A stretch of DNA of 64,000 bases, taken from assembly GCA_050486185.1 (NCBI GenBank), contig JBJHCT010000001.1, positions 82,216 through 146,215 on the forward strand. Reading direction: 5' to 3'. Both the position numbers and the translations under genes were made by a program. This DNA is from Candidatus Saccharimonadota bacterium. GTDB taxonomy: Bacteria; Patescibacteriota; Saccharimonadia; QS-5-54-17. The notes below the pieces were generated by a model. That model was not told where the DNA came from and ran no database searches. It saw nothing but the letters and a program-made list of their open reading frames with translations. Below are positions 3,058 through 54,613 of the stretch, piece after piece; the first letter of the stretch is position 1; each line of letters starts with the position of its first letter.

Positions 3058-4653
3058 TTGGCGTCTAAAGATACGAAATACATATTCGTAACAGGTGGAG
3101 TGTTGTCTGGGGTAGGCAAGGGCATTACAGCGGCTTCTATCGGCAGCATACTCAAAAGCACCGGCCTGAGTGTCAATATTCAAAAATGCGATCCATATCT
3201 CAATATGGATGCCGGTACGTTAAATCCAGCTGAGCATGGCGAGGTGTTTGTAACTGCTGATGGGGCTGAGACCGATTTAGATCTAGGCCATTATGAGCGG
3301 TTTTTAGACCAAGAGCTCAACAAGCACAGCTCCTTAATGAGTGGCCGCATACTTAATAGAGTCATCAAAGCTGAGCGAGCCGGTAAATATTTGGGTAAAA
3401 CTGTTCAGATAATTCCGCATGTTACCGACACTATACAGGATGAAATAGAGAAAGCTTCAGAAGGCTATGATGTCCATATTGTCGAGATAGGTGGCACGGT
3501 CGGGGATTATGAGGGCTTGAGTTTTATAGAAGCTATTCGTGAGTTTAAACAACGGGCGGGTAGAGAAAATGTGATGTATGTACATGTGGTATATATGCCT
3601 TACGTGCGAGCTTCTCGAGAGGTCAAGACTAAGCCGGCTCAAAACGCCGTTAGGATTCTTCGAGGCTACGGTATTAATCCAGACGTCTTAGTGGCTAGGA
3701 CTGAGGAAGAGGTCAAAAACGGTATATTAGATAAATTAAGTATGTTTGCTGATGTACCAAAGAGCGGTATCTGTATAGCTCCAACTGTTAGTAGTGTCTA
3801 TGAAGTGCCTTTGATTATGGATGGTATCACCAAGCATTTAGCCACCAAGCTGGGTCTAGAGCTTGGTGATATTGATCTCAAACACTGGAAGAAAGTTATA
3901 TCAGCTGCCAACAACACTTCTTTACCAACTGTAAAAATTGGTGTGGTGGCGAAGTACATGGATCATGAAGATACATACATGAGTGTTTTTGAGGCTGTTA
4001 AGTCAGCTGCCTGGAATGAAGGTTTGAGTCCGGAAATAGTTTGGATAGATGCCGAGAAGGCCGAGAAGAGACTACCTATAAAAGAGTTAGAAAGCTTAGA
4101 TGGTATTGTGGTTCCAGGTGGCTTTGGGTCAAGAGGAGTCGAGGGCAAGATCAGGGTAGCTGATTGGGCAATGAACAACAACAAACCATATTTAGGGCTG
4201 TGTCTAGGCATGCAAGTAGCAGCTATAGCTTTAGCACGTAAGGCGATCGATAGCTCGGCTAATTCTACTGAATTTGATTCTAGTACCAACTGCCCAGTCG
4301 TGAGTTTGATGGAAGAGCAAGAAGATGTGGTAGACCTAGGAGGTACTATGCGACTAGGTAATTGGGAATGTCATCTTGAGCCCAGCTCTATAGTCAGGTC
4401 TCTATATCGAAAAGATGTAATTCTTGAAAGACATAGGCACAGGTATGAGTTCAATAACAAATACAGACAACAACTGGAGTCTGCCGGTATGGTTTTCTCA
4501 GGACTATCTCCAGATAAGAGGTTAGTAGAAGTTATAGAACTAAAAGATCACCCATTCTTTGTGGCTAGTCAGTTCCATCCCGAATATACCTCTAGACCAG
4601 GTAAACCAAATCCGTTATTTAAGGGTTTTATTAAAGCCGCTAAAAGTAAATAA
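3058..4653 (+). CDS. pyrG: CTP synthase
   Basis: TTG start preceded by AAAGAGGAGAG. N-terminus YIFVTGGVLSGVGKGITAASIG. C-terminal glutamine amidotransferase region GLCLGMQ. Confidence 0.95.
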   Translation: MASKDTKYIFVTGGVLSGVGKGITAASIGSILKSTGLSVNIQKCDPYLNMDAGTLNPAEHGEVFVTADGAETDLDLGHYERFLDQELNKHSSLMSGRILNRVIKAERAGKYLGKTVQIIPHVTDTIQDEIEKASEGYDVHIVEIGGTVGDYEGLSFIEAIREFKQRAGRENVMYVHVVYMPYVRASREVKTKPAQNAVRILRGYGINPDVLVARTEEEVKNGILDKLSMFADVPKSGICIAPTVSSVYEVPLIMDGITKHLATKLGLELGDIDLKHWKKVISAANNTSLPTVKIGVVAKYMDHEDTYMSVFEAVKSAAWNEGLSPEIVWIDAEKAEKRLPIKELESLDGIVVPGGFGSRGVEGKIRVADWAMNNNKPYLGLCLGMQVAAIALARKAIDSSANSTEFDSSTNCPVVSLMEEQEDVVDLGGTMRLGNWECHLEPSSIVRSLYRKDVILERHRHRYEFNNKYRQQLESAGMVFSGLSPDKRLVEVIELKDHPFFVASQFHPEYTSRPGKPNPLFKGFIKAAKSK

Positions 4654-6876: not shown

Positions 6877-7272
6877 ATGGATATAGCAGGAACCAAAAAA
6901 ACCAAAAAGAAAATCCTTTTAGTTGAGGACGATACTGGGCTAGCCTCAGTTTACCAAGCTAGGCTAGAGGCCGAAGGTTTTGAGGTCTATCACTGCGACA
7001 ACGGCGAGTCAGCTTTAAGTGATGCTATTAAATACCAGCCAGACCTAATATTACTAGATGTGATGATGCCTAAAATCAGCGGCTTTGATGTATTGGATAT
7101 CTTGCACAACACTCCAGAGACTAACGGTATCAAAATTGTGATGCTAACAGCCCTATCACAAGATAGCGATAAAGAGCGAGCTGAAGAGCTAGGCGCAGAT
7201 GATTACTTAGTTAAGTCGCAAGTAGTTATAGCTGATGTTATCTCTCGCATCAAACATCATTTGAATATGTAA
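6877..7272 (+). CDS. Stand-alone response-regulator receiver (REC) domain protein
   Basis: LLVEDD...LILLDVMMPKISGFDVL...KIVMLTA...LGADDYLVKS, with no output domain. Paralogous to the REC part of 51779..52636. Confidence 0.8.
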   Translation: MDIAGTKKTKKKILLVEDDTGLASVYQARLEAEGFEVYHCDNGESALSDAIKYQPDLILLDVMMPKISGFDVLDILHNTPETNGIKIVMLTALSQDSDKERAEELGADDYLVKSQVVIADVISRIKHHLNM

Positions 7273-35193: not shown

Positions 35194-37479
35194 CTATTTT
35201 TTCTTGCCACGTTTTTTCTTATCAGGCGCCTTAGCAATCATGTCTTTAGCCTTGTCTTCATCGATAGTTTCAGGATCGACATCTTTAGGTACACTGACGT
35301 TTTTCTTACCATTAGTAACGTAGGGTCCGAAGCGACCATTGAGGACTTTGATATCTCCAAAAACAGCGATTTGTTGGTTTTTTACTTTCTCAATCTTCTC
35401 AGCTATAGCTAACTTAGCTACATCTTCGGTCACGGTCAGCGGGCCGTGAGTATTAGGTATAGGAGCATAGGTAGAGCCGGCTTTAACGTAGGGTCCGAAA
35501 CGACCGAAATTGGCAGTGATCTCTTGACCATCATCGGTCTTACCTACCGTTCGCGGTAGTTCGAATAACTCCAAGGCTTCTTCTAGAGTGATATCTTCTA
35601 TGCGTTTATTCTTTGGTATGGGAGCGAATTTAGGTTTCTCACCATCTTTATCGGCATGACCTAGCTGCAACATCGGGCCATATCTACCCATGCGCGCAAT
35701 GATGGGTTTATTACTTTTAGGGTCTATACCTACTTCCCTAGCACCGCTAGCTTCTTCACGGGATACATCTTCAGCTTCTTCAACCAATTTATGAAATGGC
35801 TTGTACCAATCGGCTATCATGCGGTTCCACTTTTCTTTACCCTGAGCTATTAGGTCGAACTCTTCTTCAGCTTCTTTAGTGAAGTCGTAATCAACGATAT
35901 GGGTAAAGTGTTTGCTTAAAAAGTCGTTGACAAGTATAGCTATCTGGGTCGGCAGTAGCTTATTGCGATCTCGGCCATATTCGATTGTTTCGGTTTCTTC
36001 TTGCAAGCGATTATTTTCTAGTTTGATGATAGTGATTTCTTTTTCGACACCTTCAACATCACCGCGCTCAACATACCCCCTATCCTGGATGGTATGGATA
36101 GTCGGTGCGTAAGTTGAGGGTCTACCGATACCCATCTCCTCTAATTTACGGACCAAAGCAGCTTCATTATATCTAGCTGGACCTCGCTTAATCGATTCTC
36201 TAGCTTCTAGAGTAATTAATTCTAGTGAATCACCTAAAGTAACTTGCGGTAGTAATACGTCCTCCATCTTGCTGTCTTGGTAGACCTTTAAGAACCCAGG
36301 GAATTTAATAACCTCGCCTTTAGCTACTAACATCTCTTCATGGTTACTACTAGCAATATGTATTTCGGTCTTCTCTAAAGTGGCCGGTGTCATCTGTGAG
36401 GCTAGAGTCTTGTTCCTAATTAGGCTATATAGTTTTTGCTGCTGCTCATCATCTCCGGCCGATTCTAGCTGTAAGTTCGTTGGCCTAATAGCCTCATGGG
36501 CTTCTTGAGCTCCGGCCTTTGATTTAAAATCTCTAGCCTGGTAATACTCCTCGCCATACTGACTTTTAATAACTTCAGTAATCTGAGTTTTGGCACTACT
36601 AGCTAAATTTACAGAGTCTGTACGCATATAGGTAATGTGTCCTGACTCATACAGTCTTTGAGCTAGTGTCATAGTCTGTCTAACGCTATAGCCTAGTTTG
36701 CGGGCTGCAGCTTGCTGCAGTGTTGAAGTAGTAAATGGTGGGCCTGGGTTGCGGTGAGTTGGCTTAGTATCGATCTCATCAACTTTGAAACTAGCATCGA
36801 TAGCTTGTTCTAGGAATTTCTTGGCCTCCGCATGCTCATCTATATAGCCCGCGAGTTTGGCAGGTAGTTCTTCACCAGACGCAGTTTTGAACGTAGCTGT
36901 TACTTTAAAGCGGTGTTCTGGGGTATAGTCTTTAATCTCTTGTTCGCGCTCAACTATTAGGCGCATAGCTACTGACTGCACACGCCCGGCGCTTAAGCCC
37001 GGCTTGACCTTTTTCCACAAGACCGGTGATATTTCATATCCGACCAATCTATCCAGCACCCTTCTAGCTTGTTGGGCATCGACTAGATTCTTATCGATCT
37101 CTCTAGGAGTTTTTATGGCACCGGTAACAGCTTCTTTGGTAATCTCGTGAAAAGCGATACGTTTAACTTGCTTCTTATCTAAATCAAGTGCTGCATGTAA
37201 GTGCCAGGCAATCGCCTCTCCTTCGCGGTCTTCATCGGTAGCTAGCCAAACAGTTTCTGCTTCACTGACTAGTTTCTTGAGTTTAGTAACCTGCTTTTTC
37301 TTATCCTCATTAACTTCATAGTTAGGCTCGAAGTTATTATCGATATCTATCCCCATATTTTTACTAGGTAGATCCCTTACGTGTCCATAGCTAGATGCCA
37401 CATGGTAGTCGCTGCCCAAAAACTTTTCAATAGTTTTAGCTTTGGCTGGGGATTCAACTATGACTAGGTTTTTGCTCAA
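35194..37479 (-). CDS. topA: DNA topoisomerase I
   Basis: MSKNLVIVESPAKAKTIEKFLG TOPRIM N-terminus and C-terminal zinc-ribbon-like repeats. Confidence 0.95.
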   Translation of the reverse strand: MSKNLVIVESPAKAKTIEKFLGSDYHVASSYGHVRDLPSKNMGIDIDNNFEPNYEVNEDKKKQVTKLKKLVSEAETVWLATDEDREGEAIAWHLHAALDLDKKQVKRIAFHEITKEAVTGAIKTPREIDKNLVDAQQARRVLDRLVGYEISPVLWKKVKPGLSAGRVQSVAMRLIVEREQEIKDYTPEHRFKVTATFKTASGEELPAKLAGYIDEHAEAKKFLEQAIDASFKVDEIDTKPTHRNPGPPFTTSTLQQAAARKLGYSVRQTMTLAQRLYESGHITYMRTDSVNLASSAKTQITEVIKSQYGEEYYQARDFKSKAGAQEAHEAIRPTNLQLESAGDDEQQQKLYSLIRNKTLASQMTPATLEKTEIHIASSNHEEMLVAKGEVIKFPGFLKVYQDSKMEDVLLPQVTLGDSLELITLEARESIKRGPARYNEAALVRKLEEMGIGRPSTYAPTIHTIQDRGYVERGDVEGVEKEITIIKLENNRLQEETETIEYGRDRNKLLPTQIAILVNDFLSKHFTHIVDYDFTKEAEEEFDLIAQGKEKWNRMIADWYKPFHKLVEEAEDVSREEASGAREVGIDPKSNKPIIARMGRYGPMLQLGHADKDGEKPKFAPIPKNKRIEDITLEEALELFELPRTVGKTDDGQEITANFGRFGPYVKAGSTYAPIPNTHGPLTVTEDVAKLAIAEKIEKVKNQQIAVFGDIKVLNGRFGPYVTNGKKNVSVPKDVDPETIDEDKAKDMIAKAPDKKKRGKKK

Positions 37480-43783: not shown

Positions 43784-46534
43784 CTAGATAGCTGTTTGAG
43801 CTAGTTTTTTAGGAGCCTGGAAGCGACGATATATCCATTTACGTAACTCATCAACTACTACTGTCGATAAGGCGGCGAGCAGGATGATACCCCACTCCGA
43901 TAGGCTTAATGGGGTGACGCGCAATAAGAACTGCCCGGCTGATGTATAAAGAGCGGCTATATGCAGAGAGATTACTACTGCTAGAGCTGCTACTATGTAC
44001 TTATTGCCAAAAGGGTTGATGCTAAATATCGATTTGTACTCAGACCTACATATGATTGCTTTATACCACTGGAAAACCACCATAGTTGTTAGCGCTACGG
44101 TGGTAGCCTTGACGTAATCACCATCCACATAGTTGCTGAATATTATCAGGGTAGTTATAGCCATAGTGGATGACATCAGTAGCATCCTTTGCGTCATCCA
44201 GCCATCGATAATCCATTTCTTGGGCTTAACAAATTTCTCTTTAAGTAGACCCGGCTCTTTTTTCTCCATAGCTAGTGCGGCGTCCAAAAATCCATCAGTT
44301 ACTAAATTCAACCACAATAGTTGAGCTGCTAAGACCGGCAATGGATAGCCTAGTAAGATAGCTGCGATTATAACCATCAACTCTCCTAGGGAGGTTGAAA
44401 ATAGGTATAGTAGTACTTTCTTAATGTTTTTGTAGATACTGCGGCCTTCTTCTACAGCCGAGACGATACTACCGAAATTATCATCCAGCAGTATTAAGTC
44501 CGAAGCCTCTTTAGCTACTTCAGTACCGCTTCTACCCATAGCTACACCTAAATCGGCACTAACTAGAGATAGAGCGTCGTTCACCCCATCGCCAGTCATA
44601 GCTACTATCTCCCCTCTTAATTTATAGGCTGAAACAATTCGGAATTTATGCTCAGGGGTAATACGAGCAAAAACGCTGACTTTATTTAGCTTTTCAGCCA
44701 GCTGCTCATCAGTGAGGCTTTCGATCTGATCATCGGTTAGAATCTCATCTCCTTCATGGAATATACCGGCCTCTTTAGCGATAGCCTCTGCAGTAATCTT
44801 GTGATCGCCAGTAATCATAACCACCTTAATACCGGCATCTCTAGCATCGATCATGGCAGCAGCAACCTCCTGGCGTATATCGTCTTTCATGCCTAATAAG
44901 CCGACAAAGGTTAGCTCTGATATATCTTCGACTCCTAATTTATCTATAACGGTCTGTTTCTTAGCCAAAGCTATAACACGTAAAGCCTGGGAGCTCATTT
45001 CAGAAAACTCTTCAGTAATCTTTTGCTTGTCTTCTTCGGTGATGGGCCGTAATTTGTCGTTCTCGCTAACTTGTGAGCAAAGATCTAAAATTACCTCTGG
45101 AGCTCCAGCTACTGCTAGGAACTGAGAGTTATTCACATTATGGATAACGGCATGATATTTAAGCTGTGAATCGAAAGGTATCTCATCTATTTGGGGGTAT
45201 TTTTCGTGCAAGTCATATTTAGAGAAGCCAATCTTCTCAGCTAGTACCTCCATAGCTGCTTCGGTTGGGTCTCCAGCTACTTTCCAAGTCTGCTTTTCCT
45301 CATCAAACGATAATCTAGCGTTAGAGCAGAATCCACCTATTTGAGCTAGGGCTTTAATCTCTGGATGCTGATCAATACTTACAGCCTCTCCATTCAAAGA
45401 GACCTCACCATCTAGCTCGTAACCACTACCACTGACTTGAAATTGAGTGAAGTTGGTATAGACTTTCTCAACTATTAGCTCGTTACGGGTAATAGTGCCG
45501 GTCTTATCTACAGCTATAACTTGAGCTTCTCCTAAAGCCTCAACGGCCTGCAAACGTTTGACCAAAACATTGCGTTTACTCATGCGCCACACGCCAGTTG
45601 CTAATAACAAGGTCATAACTATCGGTAGACCCTCCGGTATAGCAGACACTATTACAGCTACTGCTAGCATAAATATTTCATTAATATCGAAGTGGCCCAC
45701 GAAAAAGCCCAAAGAGAAGATGATGGCGCTTAAAGCCAAGACGATAGCGATAATGATGCGTGATAGATATTTGATGTCACTCTGAAGGGGCACTTCACTC
45801 TCTATCTCTGTCATTTCTTGCGATATCTTACCTATAACGGTATCGAGCCCGGTAGCTACTACCACTGCCTTGCCGGTACCGGCCACTACATGTGAGCCTT
45901 TAAAGACCATGTTTTTTTGATCGGCGGTATTGGCTTTAGAGTTATCTATAGAGTCAGCAAACTTAGTGATCGGATCTGACTCACCGGTTAGAGCAGCTTC
46001 GCTAACCCGTAGGTTATGGGAAAACAGTATACGGGCATCAGCAGGGATCTTCTCACCTTCTTGTAGCAAGATGATATCTCCTGGCGCGACCTCTTCATCG
46101 GTGATAACCGCCTCTTTACCCTCTCTAATGACGGTAGCTTGGGTTTTGGCGAATTGCTTCAAAGCTTGCAGGGTATTTTGGGCTCTACCGGCCTGTATGG
46201 TCCCAGCCACAGCATTAAATAACAAAACAAAGAAGATGATACCGGCATCTATCCACTCATTCAGCAACATCACCACTACACCGGCTGCTAGTAGTAGGTA
46301 TATTAGCGGACTTTTAAACTGCCTAAAGAATATTTTAAATAAGGTGTCTGGTTTGGCTTCGGGTAGCTTGTTGGGTCCGTAATGATCTAGCCTGAGTTTA
46401 ACCTCTTGATTTGATAAGCCCTTTTCGCTATTTGAACCTAAGTCTATAACTACTTTTTCAGCATCTTTAGTGTGCCAAAGACCCAACTTGTTTTTAGTTT
46501 GTGAGGATGAATTTTCTTGGCTACTGAGCGGCAT
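43784..46534 (-). CDS. P-type (E1-E2) cation-transporting ATPase, type IIA Ca2+-ATPase-like
   Basis: DKTGTITRN phosphorylation motif, TGES-like region, MTGDGVNDA hinge, 10-transmembrane layout. Confidence 0.9.
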   Translation of the reverse strand: MPLSSQENSSSQTKNKLGLWHTKDAEKVVIDLGSNSEKGLSNQEVKLRLDHYGPNKLPEAKPDTLFKIFFRQFKSPLIYLLLAAGVVVMLLNEWIDAGIIFFVLLFNAVAGTIQAGRAQNTLQALKQFAKTQATVIREGKEAVITDEEVAPGDIILLQEGEKIPADARILFSHNLRVSEAALTGESDPITKFADSIDNSKANTADQKNMVFKGSHVVAGTGKAVVVATGLDTVIGKISQEMTEIESEVPLQSDIKYLSRIIIAIVLALSAIIFSLGFFVGHFDINEIFMLAVAVIVSAIPEGLPIVMTLLLATGVWRMSKRNVLVKRLQAVEALGEAQVIAVDKTGTITRNELIVEKVYTNFTQFQVSGSGYELDGEVSLNGEAVSIDQHPEIKALAQIGGFCSNARLSFDEEKQTWKVAGDPTEAAMEVLAEKIGFSKYDLHEKYPQIDEIPFDSQLKYHAVIHNVNNSQFLAVAGAPEVILDLCSQVSENDKLRPITEEDKQKITEEFSEMSSQALRVIALAKKQTVIDKLGVEDISELTFVGLLGMKDDIRQEVAAAMIDARDAGIKVVMITGDHKITAEAIAKEAGIFHEGDEILTDDQIESLTDEQLAEKLNKVSVFARITPEHKFRIVSAYKLRGEIVAMTGDGVNDALSLVSADLGVAMGRSGTEVAKEASDLILLDDNFGSIVSAVEEGRSIYKNIKKVLLYLFSTSLGELMVIIAAILLGYPLPVLAAQLLWLNLVTDGFLDAALAMEKKEPGLLKEKFVKPKKWIIDGWMTQRMLLMSSTMAITTLIIFSNYVDGDYVKATTVALTTMVVFQWYKAIICRSEYKSIFSINPFGNKYIVAALAVVISLHIAALYTSAGQFLLRVTPLSLSEWGIILLAALSTVVVDELRKWIYRRFQAPKKLAQTAI

Positions 46535-46655
46535 AAAAGCACTTAACTCTTTCTTTTTTGTTAATTAGTAGTTACTTTTTAACTAAAGTAAAACACTTAT
46601 GCATTAATTGTAGCAAAAAGTTAGCTTATTTAGGATGTTTCTGTTAGCACTTACT

Positions 46656-47366
46656 CTAGCTTTGAGATTCGATCAGCTCTTGCAGTCTTTCATCAAACTC
46701 TTCGTTACTTGGTAATAGCTCAGCTACTTTCTTTTCGATCTCAGCTCTTCTTATAGCTCTTCTTATAGCTCTTATTCTGTCTCTTTCATCATCCAAGACT
46801 TTATAGGCGTGATACATGATAAAGCCAAAGCCTCGCCTAATATATATCGCCCACTTAACATCACTACACAACTTTTCTTCAAGGTCTTCAATCAACTGCT
46901 CGTAAGCATCAGCTCTAGCTAGGCCCTCTTCGCATGCAGCTACCATGTTTTCGACAAATGCATTAAGTAGTGCTATAGATTTTTCTGTCTCATCTGTATA
47001 CTCCGTCTCGTCGTCGTCTTGATCTTCATCATAGCTAGTTATTTCGAGCTGTTTAGACATTCTATTATCGAAATCTATACCTAATAGTTTATGAGCAACT
47101 TTCATGCCTATGAGGCTACCGGCTAAAAAGGTATATTCAACCTGACCTTCATCCATAGGCTCTAGGGTTGATTGGTCTCTAGGTCTAATTATTTCTGCCA
47201 TAAAATCAGCAGTCTCTGTCATATTATAGCTGCCGTATTCTTTATGTAACCAGGCAAGGTAATCTCGCACATCACCATTATTGGTTTCGATATCATCCTC
47301 TATATCGGCGATAATGTCTTCAGGATGAGGTTCACCTGATTGCTGGCTGTTTGATTCGTAAGTCAT
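46656..47366 (-). CDS. Hypothetical acidic protein (contains a 12-nt tandem repeat encoding RRAIRRAIRRA)
   Basis: ORF only. Confidence 0.35.
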   Translation of the reverse strand: MTYESNSQQSGEPHPEDIIADIEDDIETNNGDVRDYLAWLHKEYGSYNMTETADFMAEIIRPRDQSTLEPMDEGQVEYTFLAGSLIGMKVAHKLLGIDFDNRMSKQLEITSYDEDQDDDETEYTDETEKSIALLNAFVENMVAACEEGLARADAYEQLIEDLEEKLCSDVKWAIYIRRGFGFIMYHAYKVLDDERDRIRAIRRAIRRAEIEKKVAELLPSNEEFDERLQELIESQS

Positions 47367-47452
47367 AGTAACTTATTACAAATGTAAATTAGAGAAAAGT
47401 CAATAGATGAAGATTGAGTTAAAACCAAAAGAAACAACCTAATAACTTCTTC

Positions 47453-48040
47453 TTAGGTAGCTTCCTCTCCCCAGGTACTGATAGTAAAAGAAGTAACGTT
47501 ATCTGTCTTCTCAATCTCAATTAATACTCCTACCCGTAATTTTGCCCTAGAGTTGTATGCAGATATATCTATAACATCGTCTAGTTCAATTACCTCCAGC
47601 ACCTCCCAATCATTAGTCTCTAAAGCCTGTCTGTAGAACTCATCTACTTCCGAAGAGCTGCTTGCAGTAGTAAATGCCGCGTCCCAATATGGGCTAGGAA
47701 GGTCAACCGACTCGTTGTAATCTATCCTTGCAGTATCGATAGCTGTAGATGGCTCAAATATCGGTATCTGGCTAGGAAAATCATCTGCTAAACCTTGAGT
47801 CATTCGCTCCGTAGTACCATCATCAAACTCTATGATCTCTTCCTCAGCTTCAGCATTGTCACTGGTTTGATCTCCTATGCTAAGCCATGAAGTCTCGCTA
47901 TCACTTAGATATTGCCACCCAAAGAATCCCAGAGTAATTAGTAGCAGGATCACGACTGTAGATATTACGATCTTTTTAGTTTTCCCCGTCTTATTCTTAG
48001 GGCTAATCTGTCCAGTTGGAGGCATGTTTTCACTTTCCAT
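47453..48040 (-). CDS. Hypothetical membrane-anchored protein
   Basis: N-terminal transmembrane helix and an acidic extracytoplasmic domain. Confidence 0.4.
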   Translation of the reverse strand: MESENMPPTGQISPKNKTGKTKKIVISTVVILLLITLGFFGWQYLSDSETSWLSIGDQTSDNAEAEEEIIEFDDGTTERMTQGLADDFPSQIPIFEPSTAIDTARIDYNESVDLPSPYWDAAFTTASSSSEVDEFYRQALETNDWEVLEVIELDDVIDISAYNSRAKLRVGVLIEIEKTDNVTSFTISTWGEEAT

Positions 48041-48111
48041 AGCTAAATCCTTTTATGCTTAAATTCCTAGTGATAAGTATAACATCCACTTAGCTCCCAG
48101 ACCATATCGTC

Positions 48112-48762
48112 CTAGTTAAACTCCAGTATCTCTAGTACATCTTCGATATTAGTAACCAATCCGGCCCCTTGGCGGATGAGCTCATTAGTGCCTTGAGATA
48201 GTTCACTATTACTATTTCCCGGCACAGCCATGACTTGGCGGTTTTGCTCCAGCGCAAACTTAGCAGTAATAAGCGATCCACTACTTTCGGCTGCCTCTAT
48301 AACGATTACACCTATAGATAGACCTGAAATGATACGGTTTCTAATAGCAAAGTACTGTCTCTTGGGCTCGGTGCCACTCGGATATTCACTGACTAAAGCT
48401 CCTGACTGCTTTACTATGTCTTCTCCTAAGCCTTTCCTGCCTCTAGGGTAGATATCGTGTAAGCCTCCGGCCATAACGGCTACTGTATAGCCACCTTGAT
48501 CTAAAGCTGTTTTGTGAGCTATAGAGTCTATGCCGTAAGCTAAGCCACTGACTATGCCAAAGCCAGCCTTTATCAAATCACTACAAAGACTCTTAGTTAT
48601 AGCTTCGCCGTAGCTGCTGTTGTTGCGACTACCTACAACTGCCAGCATCGGTATATCGTTATTTAAATTACCTCTTAGGTATAGTTGTTTGGGCGGATAA
48701 GCTATCTCTCTAAGCTGCGGAGGGTATTGCTTATCAGGTAGTCCTACCTCTTTAATATCCAT
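48112..48762 (-). CDS. dprA: DNA-processing protein DprA/Smf (Rossmann-fold core only)
   Basis: LAVVGSRNNSSYGEAITKSLCSDLIKAGFGIVSGLAYGIDSIAHKTAL...AVMAGGL. Confidence 0.8.
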   Translation of the reverse strand: MDIKEVGLPDKQYPPQLREIAYPPKQLYLRGNLNNDIPMLAVVGSRNNSSYGEAITKSLCSDLIKAGFGIVSGLAYGIDSIAHKTALDQGGYTVAVMAGGLHDIYPRGRKGLGEDIVKQSGALVSEYPSGTEPKRQYFAIRNRIISGLSIGVIVIEAAESSGSLITAKFALEQNRQVMAVPGNSNSELSQGTNELIRQGAGLVTNIEDVLEILEFN

Positions 48763-48839
48763 ATGGTGCTATATGATAAAGCATAAAGCCGACATTAGTA
48801 AAATCACGCCAAATCTATAGTTAATTTTATGAAATAGTG

Positions 48840-48868
48840 TTGACATATATACCAACTTATGTTAATAA
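48840..48868 (+). promoter_or_regulatory. Near-consensus sigma-70 promoter (TTGACA-17-TAATAA) pointing into a plus-strand region with no CDS
   Basis: TTGACA at 48840-48845, a 17-nt spacer, TAATAA(T) at 48863-48869, and an AT-rich UP-like region upstream. Confidence 0.5.
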
Positions 48869-48875
48869 TATATCT

Positions 48876-49156
48876 ACAACAACGATTCTATTGGTCAACT
48901 CCCAATCGGTTTCGTTTGTTTGCACTGGCACTGCCCAAAGTCAGTCTAAGACATACTTTTTAGGAACAAAAAATGTTTGCCCTCCAATTACATTCGTTCC
49001 TACTTGTCCTAGCTTTTGGGCATTGTCGTTTCTCTTCGATATATTTTACTTATAGCGGGTGTCGCTGCTATAATTCTAGTATCATCGAAGGGATACGTGA
49101 GGTCGCTAGATACTTATACCCCCACCCTAAGTATCTGTGGCCTCACTTATCTTTTT
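48876..49156 (+). ncRNA. Candidate ~280-nt non-coding RNA of unknown class, bracketed by the promoter at 48840 and the terminator at 49097
   Basis: Promoter and intrinsic terminator are both plus-oriented in a 430-bp spacer between two minus-strand genes. No convincing ORF. No RNase P, tmRNA or SRP signature recognised by eye. Confidence 0.35.
49097..49156 (+). terminator. Rho-independent terminator (about 16-bp interrupted stem + TTATCTTTTT)
   Basis: GTGAGGtcgcTAGATACTTA-loop-TAAGTATCTgtggCCTCAC followed by a T-run. The T-run is only on the plus side. Confidence 0.6.
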
Positions 49157-49210
49157 AGAGGCTTTTTTATCACCACAGCGCAAGCTATAGCTATCGTATA
49201 TCTCAAGAAC

Positions 49211-49765
49211 TTAGTTTATTTTATAGGTTTCTTCCGGTAGTTCATCAAACTTTATAAAAGCAGCTATCAATTCGTCTGTTTTAGCTAGTATCTTATCTAT
49301 TTGCTTAGCTTCTTTGCGTGAGAAGTTACTCAAAACAAACTTAGATGCCGATTTCTTATCGGTTTTTTCATTTCTAATACCGATACGTATACGTTTGAAC
49401 TGGTCGGTGTTTAGATGAGCAATGATTGATTTGATGCCGTTATGGCCACCGCTACCACCTTCTCCTCTAACTCTAATAGTTTCAAAGGGTAGATCTATTT
49501 CGTCATAGACTATTAATACATCCTCAGACTCGATCTTGTAGTAGTCTGTTATAGCTCGCACAGCCTGTCCACTGCTATTCATCATGGTAGTGGGCTTAGC
49601 TATTAAAATACCACCAACCTTACAGATTTCTGCCTGCATTTTAGTATCAGTTTTGAAATCGACGTCTTGGCTTTTGGCAAAACTATCTAGCGCCATAAAG
49701 CCGATGTTATGCCGGTTTTTTTGGTAGTTTTTGCCGATATTACCTAAACCTATGACTAACTTCAT
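49211..49765 (-). CDS. pth: Peptidyl-tRNA hydrolase
   Basis: MKLVIGLGNIGKNYQKNRHNIGFMALD. Confidence 0.9.
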   Translation of the reverse strand: MKLVIGLGNIGKNYQKNRHNIGFMALDSFAKSQDVDFKTDTKMQAEICKVGGILIAKPTTMMNSSGQAVRAITDYYKIESEDVLIVYDEIDLPFETIRVRGEGGSGGHNGIKSIIAHLNTDQFKRIRIGIRNEKTDKKSASKFVLSNFSRKEAKQIDKILAKTDELIAAFIKFDELPEETYKIN

Positions 49766-51087
49766 TGCGATTTATCCTTTGGCAGGTTTTCTCGCCACTT
49801 AAATCTCAGTGGGGTTCCAGCAAAATCATACTCTTCTCTAAGTCTAGATTCTAGGTAGCGCTTATACGACCAGTGTAGATACGGAGTGTCTTTGCCGAAG
49901 ACTGTAAAGGTCGGAGGATTGACTTCAGTTTGAGTGATGTAGCGTAGTTTCGGATGCTTGTTTTTAAGCCCTGCCGGCGGATGAGCGCCGGTGGCTTCTT
50001 CTAGTGCTTTATTAAGCTGTCTGGTGGTGAGTTTCTTTTGTCTATTTTGTTGCACTTCACCAGCTATATCTAACATCTTAAAGACGTTGTGTTTAGTGGT
50101 AGCTGACGTCATCAGTAGTGGTGCCCACCAGATAAATTGAAACTGGTGCCTTATAGCGGCGGCGATACGTCTAGTCGCCTCCTCATCTCGACTAGTTAAG
50201 TCCCATTTATTTGCAGCGATCAAGATGCCTTTACCGGATTCACGGATCATACCGGCAATACGCTGGTCTCCTGCTACAGCCGGTTCCTCAGCATCAATAA
50301 CTAATATGCAAACGTCACTATCGTTAATAGCGCGCAGGGTTCTAAGAGCACTAAACCTTTCTATATCATCAGAGCGTTTAGCGGTCCTTCTCAGCCCAGC
50401 TGTATCATACAAGCGCCACTGCTTGTCTTTATGAGTGATGATGACATCGCTAGCGTCTCTAGTGGTGCCGGCTTGATCGCTCACTATAGCTCGCTCCTCA
50501 CCAGCTAGGACGTTTAATAGACTGCTTTTGCCGACGTTGGGCCTACCAAGTAGTGCTACAGTATCGATATGTTTCGTTTCTGACGTAGTTTGATCGGGTA
50601 TTAACTCTACCAATACATCTAGTAGGTCACCGCTACCGGTGCCGTGTATAGCCGATACCGGCACAATATGTTTCGCAGGCAGTTTATCTAGCTCTACTTG
50701 AGTATTTTTACGGTCCGACTTATTAGCAGCTACTACTAAGGGTTTAGATGATTTGTAGGCATCTTTGATGATGCGGCTATCTTCGTCACTTAATATAGTA
50801 CTGCTATCGATTACGATCATAATTACATCGGCTACATCTATAGCTGCTTTTAGCTGGGCTTGCATCGAGATTTCTAGTTCATTGTCTGCCCTCTCAAACC
50901 CAGCAGTATCTATGAGCCAAAAGCTTTTGCCGTTCCACCTAGTAACACCTTGGACCCTATCCCTAGTTGTTCCAGGCATGTCAGATACTACGGCCTTACG
51001 TTCACCTAGCAGTCGATTAAATAGGCTAGATTTGCCGACGTTGGTCCGTCCGATGATGGCGATTATGGGTAGATTATCTTGCTTCAT
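49762..51087 (-). CDS. der: Ribosome-biogenesis GTPase Der (EngA), tandem GTP-binding domains + KH-like domain
   Basis: Two G-domains: GRTNVGKSSL...DTAG and GRPNVGKSSL...DTAG. Confidence 0.9.
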   Translation of the reverse strand: MKQDNLPIIAIIGRTNVGKSSLFNRLLGERKAVVSDMPGTTRDRVQGVTRWNGKSFWLIDTAGFERADNELEISMQAQLKAAIDVADVIMIVIDSSTILSDEDSRIIKDAYKSSKPLVVAANKSDRKNTQVELDKLPAKHIVPVSAIHGTGSGDLLDVLVELIPDQTTSETKHIDTVALLGRPNVGKSSLLNVLAGEERAIVSDQAGTTRDASDVIITHKDKQWRLYDTAGLRRTAKRSDDIERFSALRTLRAINDSDVCILVIDAEEPAVAGDQRIAGMIRESGKGILIAANKWDLTSRDEEATRRIAAAIRHQFQFIWWAPLLMTSATTKHNVFKMLDIAGEVQQNRQKKLTTRQLNKALEEATGAHPPAGLKNKHPKLRYITQTEVNPPTFTVFGKDTPYLHWSYKRYLESRLREEYDFAGTPLRFKWRENLPKDKSQ

Positions 51088-51118
51088 TACTAATACATAG
51101 TAGCATTATCTATCTAAA

Positions 51119-51769
51119 CTATGCCTTTTTGTATTTAGCTTCTTGCATATCACCTAAAACATATTCACCAAACTGTGTTCTCAGTAGATCTACTATCTCA
51201 TAATCCAAAGCTTCAAAAGTTTTACGTATCTGGCGGTTTCGCCCCTCACTCATAACCACCTGCCATATATTACCCCGAAGGTGTCTAAGTTTTAGTTTAC
51301 TCGTATATCCTTCTAGCTCGATACCGTCTTCTATTCTTTTTTGGTCCTCGCTACTCAAAGGTCTATTTAGAGTAACTTCATAGACTTTATCTTTACTGTA
51401 CTTAGGATGAGTTAGTTTCTGTGCTAGCTCCCCATCATTTGTTAATAGGATTAGTCCCCTAGAGTCTTTATCTAATCTACCAACAGTTTTGAGATGCTTT
51501 AGATCTTGGGGCAATAGCTCGTAGATTGTGGGAGTATCATCTTGCCTGACTTTGCTACAGATTACACCTTTTGGCTTATGGAAGGCGATGGTGGTGGTTG
51601 GGTTGGGTCTTAATAACTCACCATCCAGCATGATTATGTCATCATCTCCTACTCTTTGACCCGCAGTTGGCGGATGGTTATTTACTAGCACTCTACCGGC
51701 AGCTATTAACTCATCGGCTTTGCGTCTAGATAATCCGGTGCTTTGGGCTATATACTTATTGATTCTCAA
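51119..51769 (-). CDS. rRNA pseudouridine synthase (RsuA/RluB family) with S4 domain
   Basis: MRINKYIAQSTGLSRRKADELIAAGRV S4 domain. Catalytic GRLDKDSRGLILLTND. Confidence 0.8.
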   Translation of the reverse strand: MRINKYIAQSTGLSRRKADELIAAGRVLVNNHPPTAGQRVGDDDIIMLDGELLRPNPTTTIAFHKPKGVICSKVRQDDTPTIYELLPQDLKHLKTVGRLDKDSRGLILLTNDGELAQKLTHPKYSKDKVYEVTLNRPLSSEDQKRIEDGIELEGYTSKLKLRHLRGNIWQVVMSEGRNRQIRKTFEALDYEIVDLLRTQFGEYVLGDMQEAKYKKA

Positions 51770-51778
51770 GGAGTAAAA

Positions 51779-52636
51779 CTATTTTTTCTTAGAAGCTTTT
51801 TTAGCCTTCTTGGCTTTCTTTGCCTTCTTTTTATCTGATTCATCGTCTTTAGCCTGAGTTTCTGCATCTTGGCTATCATCCCCATCATCGGAGTTTTGGC
51901 TTTGGACTAATTGCTCAATTTCAGCAATTTCTTCAGGAGTAGCTGTCAGCCTGGTCGGCATCGATCCTGAATTATCATCCCCTACATTATCATCGCTCTG
52001 TTCAGTGGGCGCATTTAAATCAGGATTTACTTGATTGATTTGGTTAGTTACAGCTTCCTCTATACCGTTTTGAGATTGAATATCTTGACCAGGAGTTTGA
52101 TCTGGAATTTGAGTAGCGTTATTTTGCGCAGGACCATCGCCATAGCCACCACTAGCATATGAATTAGGAGTATTAGTGTCTGTTGGATTATTCGAATCAG
52201 TGCCATCATTTGTTGCTTCAGCTGCTTGGGTAGCACCTGAAGCTGCTGGAGTATCATCGTTACCTGATACCTCAGCAACCATAGCTTTGACAGTACTAAC
52301 AACATCTTCTAGAGTGATCTGTGACTTAACTAAATATTTATCAGCTCCTAATTTCTCGCCTCTATCTTTATCGGTCTCTTGTGATAGCGCCGATAGCATA
52401 ATAACTTTAGCGTCTTTGGTTTCGGGGGTAGAACGCAAGATATCCAGTACATCAAAACCGCTGATTTTAGGCATCATCACATCTAAGACTATGACGCTGG
52501 GTTTTTCTGCCACCGCCTTAGTTAAAGCCTCTTCCCCATCTGAAGCAGTAACAATATCATAGTTCTCAGCACCTAGCCTAGCTGCATAGATTTCTCGTAA
52601 GTTTATATCGTCTTCTACTAGTAAAACTTTTGTCAT
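51779..52636 (-). CDS. Response-regulator receiver domain fused to an approximately 160-aa low-complexity acidic region with a poly-Lys tail
   Basis: The REC domain is paralogous to 6877..7272 (KISGFDVLDIL..TPET....K..ML.ALSQ..DK.R.E.LGAD.YLVKSQ). The C-terminus ends KKAKKAKKAKKASKKK. Confidence 0.75.
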   Translation of the reverse strand: MTKVLLVEDDINLREIYAARLGAENYDIVTASDGEEALTKAVAEKPSVIVLDVMMPKISGFDVLDILRSTPETKDAKVIMLSALSQETDKDRGEKLGADKYLVKSQITLEDVVSTVKAMVAEVSGNDDTPAASGATQAAEATNDGTDSNNPTDTNTPNSYASGGYGDGPAQNNATQIPDQTPGQDIQSQNGIEEAVTNQINQVNPDLNAPTEQSDDNVGDDNSGSMPTRLTATPEEIAEIEQLVQSQNSDDGDDSQDAETQAKDDESDKKKAKKAKKAKKASKKK

Positions 52637-54537: not shown

Positions 54538-54613
54538 GGCCCCATCGTCTAGTGGCCTAGGACACCAGGTTCTCATCCTGGAAACCGGGGTTCGACTCCC
54601 CGTGGGGTCACCA
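54538..54613 (+). tRNA. tRNA-Glu (anticodon CUC)
   Basis: Hand-folded cloverleaf: acceptor GGCCCCA/TGGGGTC, anticodon stem CCAGG/CCTGG with loop TTCTCAT, T-arm CGGGG-TTCGACT-CCCCG, encoded CCA. Confidence 0.85.

Follow-up and report, generated by a model that had tools for sequence, protein, structure and literature searches.

What, if anything, is transcribed from the spacer that separates dprA from pth in Saccharimonadia, and what might such a transcript do? The question is raised by positions 48763-49210 of a stretch of 64,000 nucleotides (nt) on contig JBJHCT010000001.1 of a Candidatus Saccharimonadota bacterium (the whole stretch is called the window below), a 448-bp spacer bounded by two minus-strand genes, for which an earlier note made from the letters of the sequence had proposed a promoter and a terminator without a gene between them. 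The plus strand of this spacer is predicted to carry an independently transcribed, highly structured noncoding RNA (ncRNA) of ~280 nt at 48876-49156, and this RNA very probably belongs, as a divergent member, to a family of RNAs not described before, whose genes lie upstream of dprA and point away from it in Saccharimonadia-type bacteria of the Candidate Phyla Radiation (CPR). As for function, the reading that we tentatively prefer, with a probability of roughly 0.4, is that of a trans-acting RNA whose C-rich loops base-pair with G-rich or Shine-Dalgarno (SD)-like sites in mRNAs. The locus is laid out as follows:

48112-48762, minus strand: dprA (Pfam DNA_processg_A, E = 7.6e-75), the divergent neighbour of the RNA gene
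48840-48868, plus strand: promoter of the RNA gene, with the -35 element TTGACA at 48840-48845, a 14-nt spacer, the extended -10 element TGT at 48860-48862 and the -10 element TAATAA at 48863-48868
48876-49156, plus strand: predicted ncRNA transcript of 281 nt, its 5' end placed from the promoter spacing and its 3' end from the U-tract
49097-49156, plus strand: intrinsic terminator, with a 19-bp stem at 49097-49146, the 11-nt loop UACCCCCACCC at 49117-49127 and the U-tract UUAUCUUUUU at 49147-49156
49211-49765, minus strand: pth (Pfam Pept_tRNA_hydro, E = 4.1e-60), the convergent downstream neighbour of the RNA gene

The promoter is of the sigma-70 type with an extended -10 element (TTGACA-N14-TGt-TAATAA, 17-nt spacer), and a promoter scan, which calls the site as TTGACA-18-AATAAT with 11 of 12 matches, gives it as the best promoter-like site in 46000-52000. 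Promoter-like sites are not enriched overall in this interval (9 found, 14 expected), so the real support for the promoter is its geometry, TTGAC[A/G]-N14-TGn-TAnnn[T/A], which is conserved in all 11 full-sequence loci of the family described below, the window included. The terminator hairpin folds at -26.9 kcal/mol on the plus strand (z-score -6.7), as against -19.7 kcal/mol on the minus strand (z-score -2.7), where there is no U-run; a consensus terminator scan missed it because that scan permits loops of at most 8 nt and the loop here has 11. The full 281-nt transcript is predicted to fold at about -98 kcal/mol (z-score -8.5), with none of 200 dinucleotide shuffles folding as well, while the reverse strand of the same interval reaches a z-score of only -4.3. 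What the earlier note had read from the letters, namely a spacer between two minus-strand genes (dprA and pth by Pfam; 448 bp as measured, instead of the 430 given), a near-consensus plus-strand promoter at 48840 and a strong terminator working in one direction, is borne out by these results.

The predicted fold of the window transcript is a row of hairpins that ends with the terminator:

48878-48920, plus strand: H1, a small 5' hairpin with the loop UCAACUC at 48895-48901, weak (z-score -2.3) and variable across the family
48927-49027, plus strand: H2, a long irregular hairpin (-28.6 kcal/mol, z-score -4.05)
48979-48985, plus strand: GCCCUCC in the apical loop of H2, of which CCCUCC is invariant in all family members; the others read ACCCUCC
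49028-49096, plus strand: H3, a second domain (-27.2 kcal/mol, z-score -7.0)

The lower stem of H2 in the window pairs UGGCA-C-UGCCC with GGGCA-U-UGUCG, and its apical stem AAUGU with ACAUU. H3 is closed by a helix of CUCUUCGAU (49032-49040) with AUCGAAGGG (49084-49092) and contains an inner hairpin, UAUAGCGG/CGCUGCUAUA.

Is this arrangement peculiar to one genome? The Der protein of the window shares 82% identity with its counterpart in a metagenome-assembled genome named Candidatus Saccharimonadales bacterium (L001), which places the window in a Saccharimonadia-type CPR bacterium; L001 was the sole true relative in a scan of a genome collection with Der as the query. The spacer sequence recurs in L001 (nhmmer E = 4e-46), directly upstream of and divergent from a dprA homologue; the RNA does not adjoin pth there because two open reading frames (ORFs) are inserted. 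Identity between the two sequences runs from the -35 hexamer to the U-tract, with a variable apical half of H2. Nine further distinct loci (L005, L007, L089, L090, L092, L094, L095, L096 and L098) were reached through DprA homologues with a Saccharimonadia-type C-terminus, and in each of them an unannotated gap of 200-390 bp lies upstream of dprA. With the window and L001 these make up the 11 full-sequence loci; in a 12th, L099, the RNA is truncated by the contig end. The common plan of the nine loci, established by eye and by individual folding, comprises the promoter, a small 5' hairpin (present at the position of H1 in every homologue), a linker rich in A, a long hairpin with a 5-bp apical stem and a loop that ends in ACCCUCC, a second domain, a short linker that reads UGYAA in six of these loci, and an intrinsic terminator. 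The second domain is closed by CCCUUCGAU/AUCGAAGGG or a close variant and holds one or two inner hairpins; across the family the consensus of this closing helix is CYCUUYRAU/AUYRAARGG, and the RNAs are about 170-280 nt long.

A covariance model of the core, built from the nine typical members, recovers its own training set. In an independent prospective test it matched the RNA of L099, whose DprA is named Candidatus Saccharibacteria bacterium, in the expected place and on the expected strand (E = 1.2e-12). The same model gave no match in 80 dprA loci of other lineages, collected from a metagenome scan with a DprA alignment (generic DprA peptides), and none of these 80 loci has a DprA C-terminus of the Saccharimonadia type; a motif scan of viral contigs returned 0 matches.

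We also noticed that some of the terminators in the family are flanked by an A-tract as well as a U-tract (AACAAAAGCCCG...CGGGCUUUUGUU; L005 9743-9790, L094 and L089, RNA strand) and could also end the convergent pth transcript. In two loci the terminator reaches into the annotated pth gene at its 3' end, by 25 nt in L007 (9779-9803) and by 7 nt in L092 (3797-3803).

The probable membership of the window copy in this family rests on its position, its promoter geometry, a helix-by-helix correspondence and the order of its motifs. As elsewhere, the RNA gene is the next one upstream of dprA and points away from it. The ordered motifs CCCUCC, CCCUUYRAU and AUYRAAGGG, in a pattern built only from the nine other members and with at most 2 mismatches, match the window once, at 48979, 49032 and 49084 on the plus strand, where chance would give 0.095 matches per 64 kb on both strands and about 3e-4 for the spacer and strand alone. 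A point that weighs against membership is the score of the covariance model on the window copy, which even with filters off is 6.1 bits (E = 2.5, 48971-49096) and not significant, though in the right place. In addition, nhmmer finds no link between the window and the nine distant loci, and MAFFT misaligns the window clade. Since the model misses the window copy, we regard the window and L001 as a divergent subclade, which is marked by a longer H2, GCCCUCC instead of ACCCUCC and a linker of 3 nt between H2 and H3 (0 nt in the nine other members).

The structure is further supported by compensatory changes. In a MAFFT alignment of the nine typical members that was not fitted to structure, RNAalifold predicts 39 pairs, 20 of them with compensatory changes, in the lower and apical stems of H2, the closing stem of H3 and the terminator. 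For an alignment that includes the window, the helix strands were cut out by hand-set anchors, whose order was verified to be the same in every sequence (10 distinct sequences). Here 97.9% of the cells in 24 pairs are paired, a percentage inflated because the anchored alignment was fitted to the structure, and 17 pairs have changed on both sides; sliding the partner by 1-3 columns lowers the pairing to 28-47%. None of 500 shuffles reaches the observed values on four of five measures; on the fifth, the number of further pair types, 22 of them do. Compensatory changes are found in 13 of the 15 counted pairs of H2, including all 5 pairs of the apical stem that closes the CCCUCC loop, and 4 pairs covary in the closing helix of H3. 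The rows of the window and L001 pair at all 24 positions (G.U aside) and differ in sequence at 13 of the 15 H2 pairs: the lower stem is UGGCA.UGCCC/GGGCA.UGUCG in the window clade and ACUAA.CCGCC/GGCGG.UUAGU in the others, and the apical stem is AAUGU/ACAUU as against CUAAA/UUUAG, CUUCA/UGAAG and CUUAA/UUAAG. The anchored alignment has 11 G.U cells and 0 A.C cells, and because a G.U pair would be an A.C mismatch on the opposite strand, the functional strand is taken to be the plus strand of the window. Both of the comparative points that the earlier note had raised, conservation in related genomes and covariation, are thereby answered: the region is kept in L001 and in the further dprA loci, and 17 of the 24 pairs have compensatory changes.

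In six members (L005 9743-9956, L094, L089, L090, L096 and L098, RNA strand) the H2 loop sequence UGCACCCUCC is complementary at 9-10 of 10 nt to the 3' strand of H3 and the following linker, G[A/G]AGGGUG[U/C]A, so that the RNA could fold in another way, form a pseudoknot or dimerise. As a feature of the family, pairing of the H2 loop with the H3 3' strand (UGCACCCUCC with GGAGGGUGCA) was rejected, the complementarity being missing in the window, L001, L007, L092 and L095.

Could the element be something already known, or a protein gene? At gathering score, Rfam 15 recognises only tRNA-Glu in the whole window. With the threshold relaxed to E<=10, the window spacer and the copies of L005 and L098 give sub-threshold noise only (microRNA and small nucleolar RNA models, and a Thr_leader hit that matches just the terminator), with no match to RoxS/RsaE (RF01820), 6S RNA, RNase P or the signal recognition particle (SRP) RNA; ARAGORN finds no transfer-messenger RNA (tmRNA). 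The earlier note had seen no signature of RNase P, tmRNA, SRP or 6S by eye, and these scans agree with it. A repeat element, either a miniature inverted-repeat transposable element or a repetitive extragenic palindrome, was rejected since the sequence is single-copy within the 64-kb window, and a cis-regulatory leader or riboswitch since the next gene faces the RNA in all 11 full loci and the terminator ends the element. The ORFs of 72, 61 and 74 amino acids, which the note had described as starting before the promoter or running through the terminator, do so (the first starts at 48837, upstream of the -35 element, and the two others read across the terminator); Pfam matches none of them, the 11 homologues have no ORF in common by strand, frame or length, and indels in the alignment of the window with L001 shift the ORF frames. 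The conserved small protein that the note had named as the finding that would speak against an RNA gene was not seen among the homologues. A mini-ORF following the SD-like sequence GGAGGG was considered and set aside, as it occurs only in L090. Full-text literature searches returned no description of a dprA-linked RNA; a preprint of 2022 on the TM7x transcriptome reports no validated small RNAs in TM7x (10.1101/2022.03.25.485537), and two large surveys of structured RNAs make no mention of Saccharibacteria. Judged from the sequence comparisons, the dprA-linked element very probably represents a new, lineage-wide family of structured ncRNA whose kind is known, that of stand-alone bacterial structured or small RNAs with C-rich loops, and the unclassified ncRNA of ~280 nt from promoter to terminator that the note had proposed fits the fold, the covariation, the bounds of conservation with L001 and the lack of a conserved ORF or an Rfam match.

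What such an RNA might do is suggested mainly by its loops. The CCCUCC motif has a predicted mean unpaired probability of 0.86-1.0 in all 11 sequences, a second C-rich motif (CCACCU, CCCACCC or ACCCUC) is found in the terminator loop of 8 of the 11 members, and these loops resemble the anti-SD sequence of 16S rRNA, CACCUCCU. In the mechanism that we prefer, the strong extended -10 promoter would drive a discrete RNA ending at the intrinsic terminator, H2 and H3 would serve as a scaffold that keeps the CCCUCC seed in an open loop, the seed and the C-rich terminator loop would pair with G-rich or SD-like stretches of mRNAs, and this pairing would block translation initiation or alter mRNA stability. 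It is favoured because CCCUCC never changes while the stem around the loop covaries, and because the best-documented use of exposed C-rich loops without an Hfq-type hub is pairing with G-rich or SD regions. In RoxS, it is the C-rich regions that pair with G-rich target sites (PMC5419742), and in the Firmicutes small RNAs RoxS/RsaE the C-rich motifs bind mRNAs at G-rich or SD regions (PMC5419742, PMC6158497).

Several observations weigh against pairing with mRNAs. Among 57 start regions of the window, with gene starts called crudely as the longest ORF, none has GGAGGG within 40 nt upstream; a 4-nt SD core occurs between -20 and -4 in 20 of the 57, and GGAGG in one. Many of the regions upstream of starts in the window are A/U-rich, and together with the sparse SD cores this suggests weak use of SD sequences or leaderless mRNAs. 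No consistent complementary SD was found in the genes of the family loci, and the duplex energies of the RNA with start regions are unremarkable. Furthermore, the position, the promoter and two complex domains are kept among loci whose DprA proteins are only ~50% identical; base-pairing small RNAs usually evolve fast, and deep retention is commoner in housekeeping or protein-binding RNAs. Pairing through the seed also does not explain why the closing helix of H3 is conserved in sequence.

The main alternative, which we consider rather unlikely, is a housekeeping decoy or scaffold whose loops copy the 3' end of 16S rRNA (the anti-SD, GAUCACCUCCUUU) and which titrates or delivers a factor such as Era (through its KH domain), some other KH-type RNA-binding protein, an initiation factor or a protein of 16S maturation. 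In its favour are the failure to find mRNA targets in the 57 start regions or in the family loci, and the retention of the position, strong constitutive-type promoter and complex scaffold of the RNA across the lineage. The loop sequence AAUCACCCUCCUUA of L007 and the terminator loop GGAUCCACCUCC of L098 come close to the 16S tail. Era recognises GAUCACCUCC, according to Tu et al. 2011 as cited in PMC10582724, and the anti-SD motif CCUCCU is kept in most CPR bacteria outside a Parcubacteria subgroup (PMC9297842). However, the invariant core CCCUCC has one C more than the CCUCC of 16S rRNA, and the GAUCA part is unconserved, with the window reading UUUGCCCUCCAAU. We know of no 16S 3'-end decoy RNA of this type, which also counts against it. 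The broader form of the idea, a class-wide Saccharimonadia housekeeping RNA that mimics the 16S 3' end and has as its partner the ribosome or a factor of translation or ribosome biogenesis, is in our judgement unlikely; if true, an RNA mimicking 16S would adjust translation or the assembly of ribosomes in these epibionts, which are ultra-small and have reduced genomes, and would be a housekeeping RNA without counterpart in other bacteria.

The linkage to dprA raises a different possibility, that of a local regulator of dprA, and hence of natural competence, acting through interference between promoters or through an antisense overlap with the dprA 5' end. All 12 loci have the RNA gene next to dprA, while the pth side is interrupted in three (L001, L089 and L094), so it is to dprA that the RNA gene is linked. 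Moreover, 8 of the 11 full loci have their annotated dprA start codon within -11 to +21 nt of the -35 hexamer of the RNA, which implies that dprA there is leaderless or has a promoter overlapping the RNA promoter or gene. The sites concerned are:

L005 9993-10003; L096 and L098 about 3001; L092 about 4001-4012; and others: examples of tight spacing between the dprA start and the -35 hexamer
48773-48802 of the window, minus strand: candidate dprA promoter TTTACT-18-TATCAT, a consensus match only (9 of 12), back to back with the RNA promoter

We consider regulation of dprA improbable, since this overlap is not universal: the gap between the dprA ATG and the -35 element is 77 nt in the window, and 71-77 nt for the window and L001 together, which fits a separate dprA promoter. 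From the candidate at 48802-48773, the dprA mRNA of the window would start with almost no leader. Besides, promoter interference leaves the covarying structure of 180-280 nt and its invariant loop unexplained, and no complementarity of the RNA to the dprA start region was found.

A very divergent form of a known housekeeping RNA (6S, SRP, a fragment of RNase P, or tmRNA) that the models missed would agree with the strong promoter, the structure and the lineage-wide conservation, and CPR RNAs are often atypical (PMC9297842). We nonetheless rate it as very unlikely: Rfam 15 gives no credible match for three members even at E<=10 and ARAGORN no tmRNA, the stem that joins the two ends of 6S RNA and its central bubble have no counterpart here, the motifs of SRP domain IV and RNase P P4 were not seen by eye, and at 170-280 nt the RNAs fall short of the length needed for RNase P or tmRNA. 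Of the two alternatives that the earlier note had left side by side, the unclassified ncRNA is accordingly the one retained. That the spacer is a small-protein gene, or a non-functional stretch whose hairpins merely terminate pth and neighbouring genes, is hardly credible, for although ORFs of 61-74 amino acids exist in the window and the A/U-tract-flanked terminators of some members could act in both directions, no ORF is shared, those of the window and L001 diverge by frameshift without a Pfam match, and spacer DNA would not be expected to show compensatory changes in three helices, nor an invariant loop or a conserved promoter.

Around the RNA gene, the DprA proteins of the window (216 amino acids) and L001 (217 amino acids; L001 9375-10028) lack the C-terminal ~65 amino acids, the winged-helix domain PF17782, which is present in most of the Saccharimonadia DprA relatives of 281-292 amino acids; the two genomes with the short DprA are the same two that have the divergent, longer form of the RNA. 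At the other Saccharimonadia loci topA follows dprA, directly or past one to three small ORFs, with the exceptions of L090, L096 and L098, where other genes are found. What comes after dprA in the window (46656-48040, minus strand) is a pair of ORFs without a Pfam match (195 and 236 amino acids), and then a P-type ATPase; a topoisomerase-like ORF at 35194-37479 (minus strand), ~11 kb from dprA, indicates a local rearrangement. Elsewhere in the window, tRNA-Glu(CUC) at 54538-54613 (plus strand) is the sole match to Rfam or ARAGORN, and a 228-nt inverted repeat (7012-7239 and 52301-52528, 71% complementary) corresponds to two paralogous response-regulator receiver genes in opposite orientation, at 6877-7272 (plus strand) and 51779-52636 (minus strand).

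In Saccharibacteria, as in other CPR bacteria, the genome is ~1 Mb in size and contains very little intergenic DNA. An RNA gene of 180-280 nt is found at every Saccharimonadia-type dprA locus examined, with its promoter, covarying structure and invariant loop kept, and such retention makes it likely that the RNA does something important. Some Saccharibacteria are cultivable and can be genetically modified by natural transformation; this would be the first conserved ncRNA candidate in a cultivable CPR lineage, and it offers a testable entry into post-transcriptional or translational control in a group that is hard to study. An Rfam entry for the family could also stop the annotation of spurious ORFs in the spacer.

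Among known systems, RoxS/RsaE is the obvious comparison for an RNA that pairs through C-rich loops. Both are stand-alone genes with a sigma-A-type promoter and an intrinsic terminator, and both present several unpaired C-rich loop motifs, at least two in the dprA-linked RNA (the H2 loop in all 11 members and the terminator loop in 8 of 11). Neither lineage is known to have an Hfq-type hub. The two RNAs differ in that there is no similarity in sequence or by covariance model; the dprA-linked RNA is 2-3 times longer, has a conserved long hairpin and a second domain, often a three-way junction, carries CCCUCC and not UCCC/CCCC, and is fixed in synteny beside dprA. In RNAIII of Staphylococcus aureus, the loops of H7, H13 and H14 in the 3' domain are C-rich, mimic the anti-SD and bind the SD of targets, so that the apical presentation of an anti-SD-like C-rich sequence in hairpin loops is shared; RNAIII, however, is 514 nt long, encodes delta-haemolysin and is under quorum-sensing control, and the Rfam scans detected no homology. 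With 6S RNA (RF00013) the dprA-linked RNA would have in common abundance and a housekeeping-type character, and it shares a strong promoter, a length of ~200 nt and a mostly double-stranded fold, but where 6S RNA is a rod closed at its ends with a central bubble, the dprA-linked RNA is a series of three or four separate hairpins followed by a terminator. Orphan RNAs such as the raiA motif and OLE are lineage-restricted, with complex covarying structures, deep conservation and functions that could not be read from genomic context. The dprA-linked RNA has no Rfam match, is smaller than OLE and has a simple C-rich loop as its most conserved part, and it resembles them in being an orphan, lineage-restricted ncRNA with a covarying structure.

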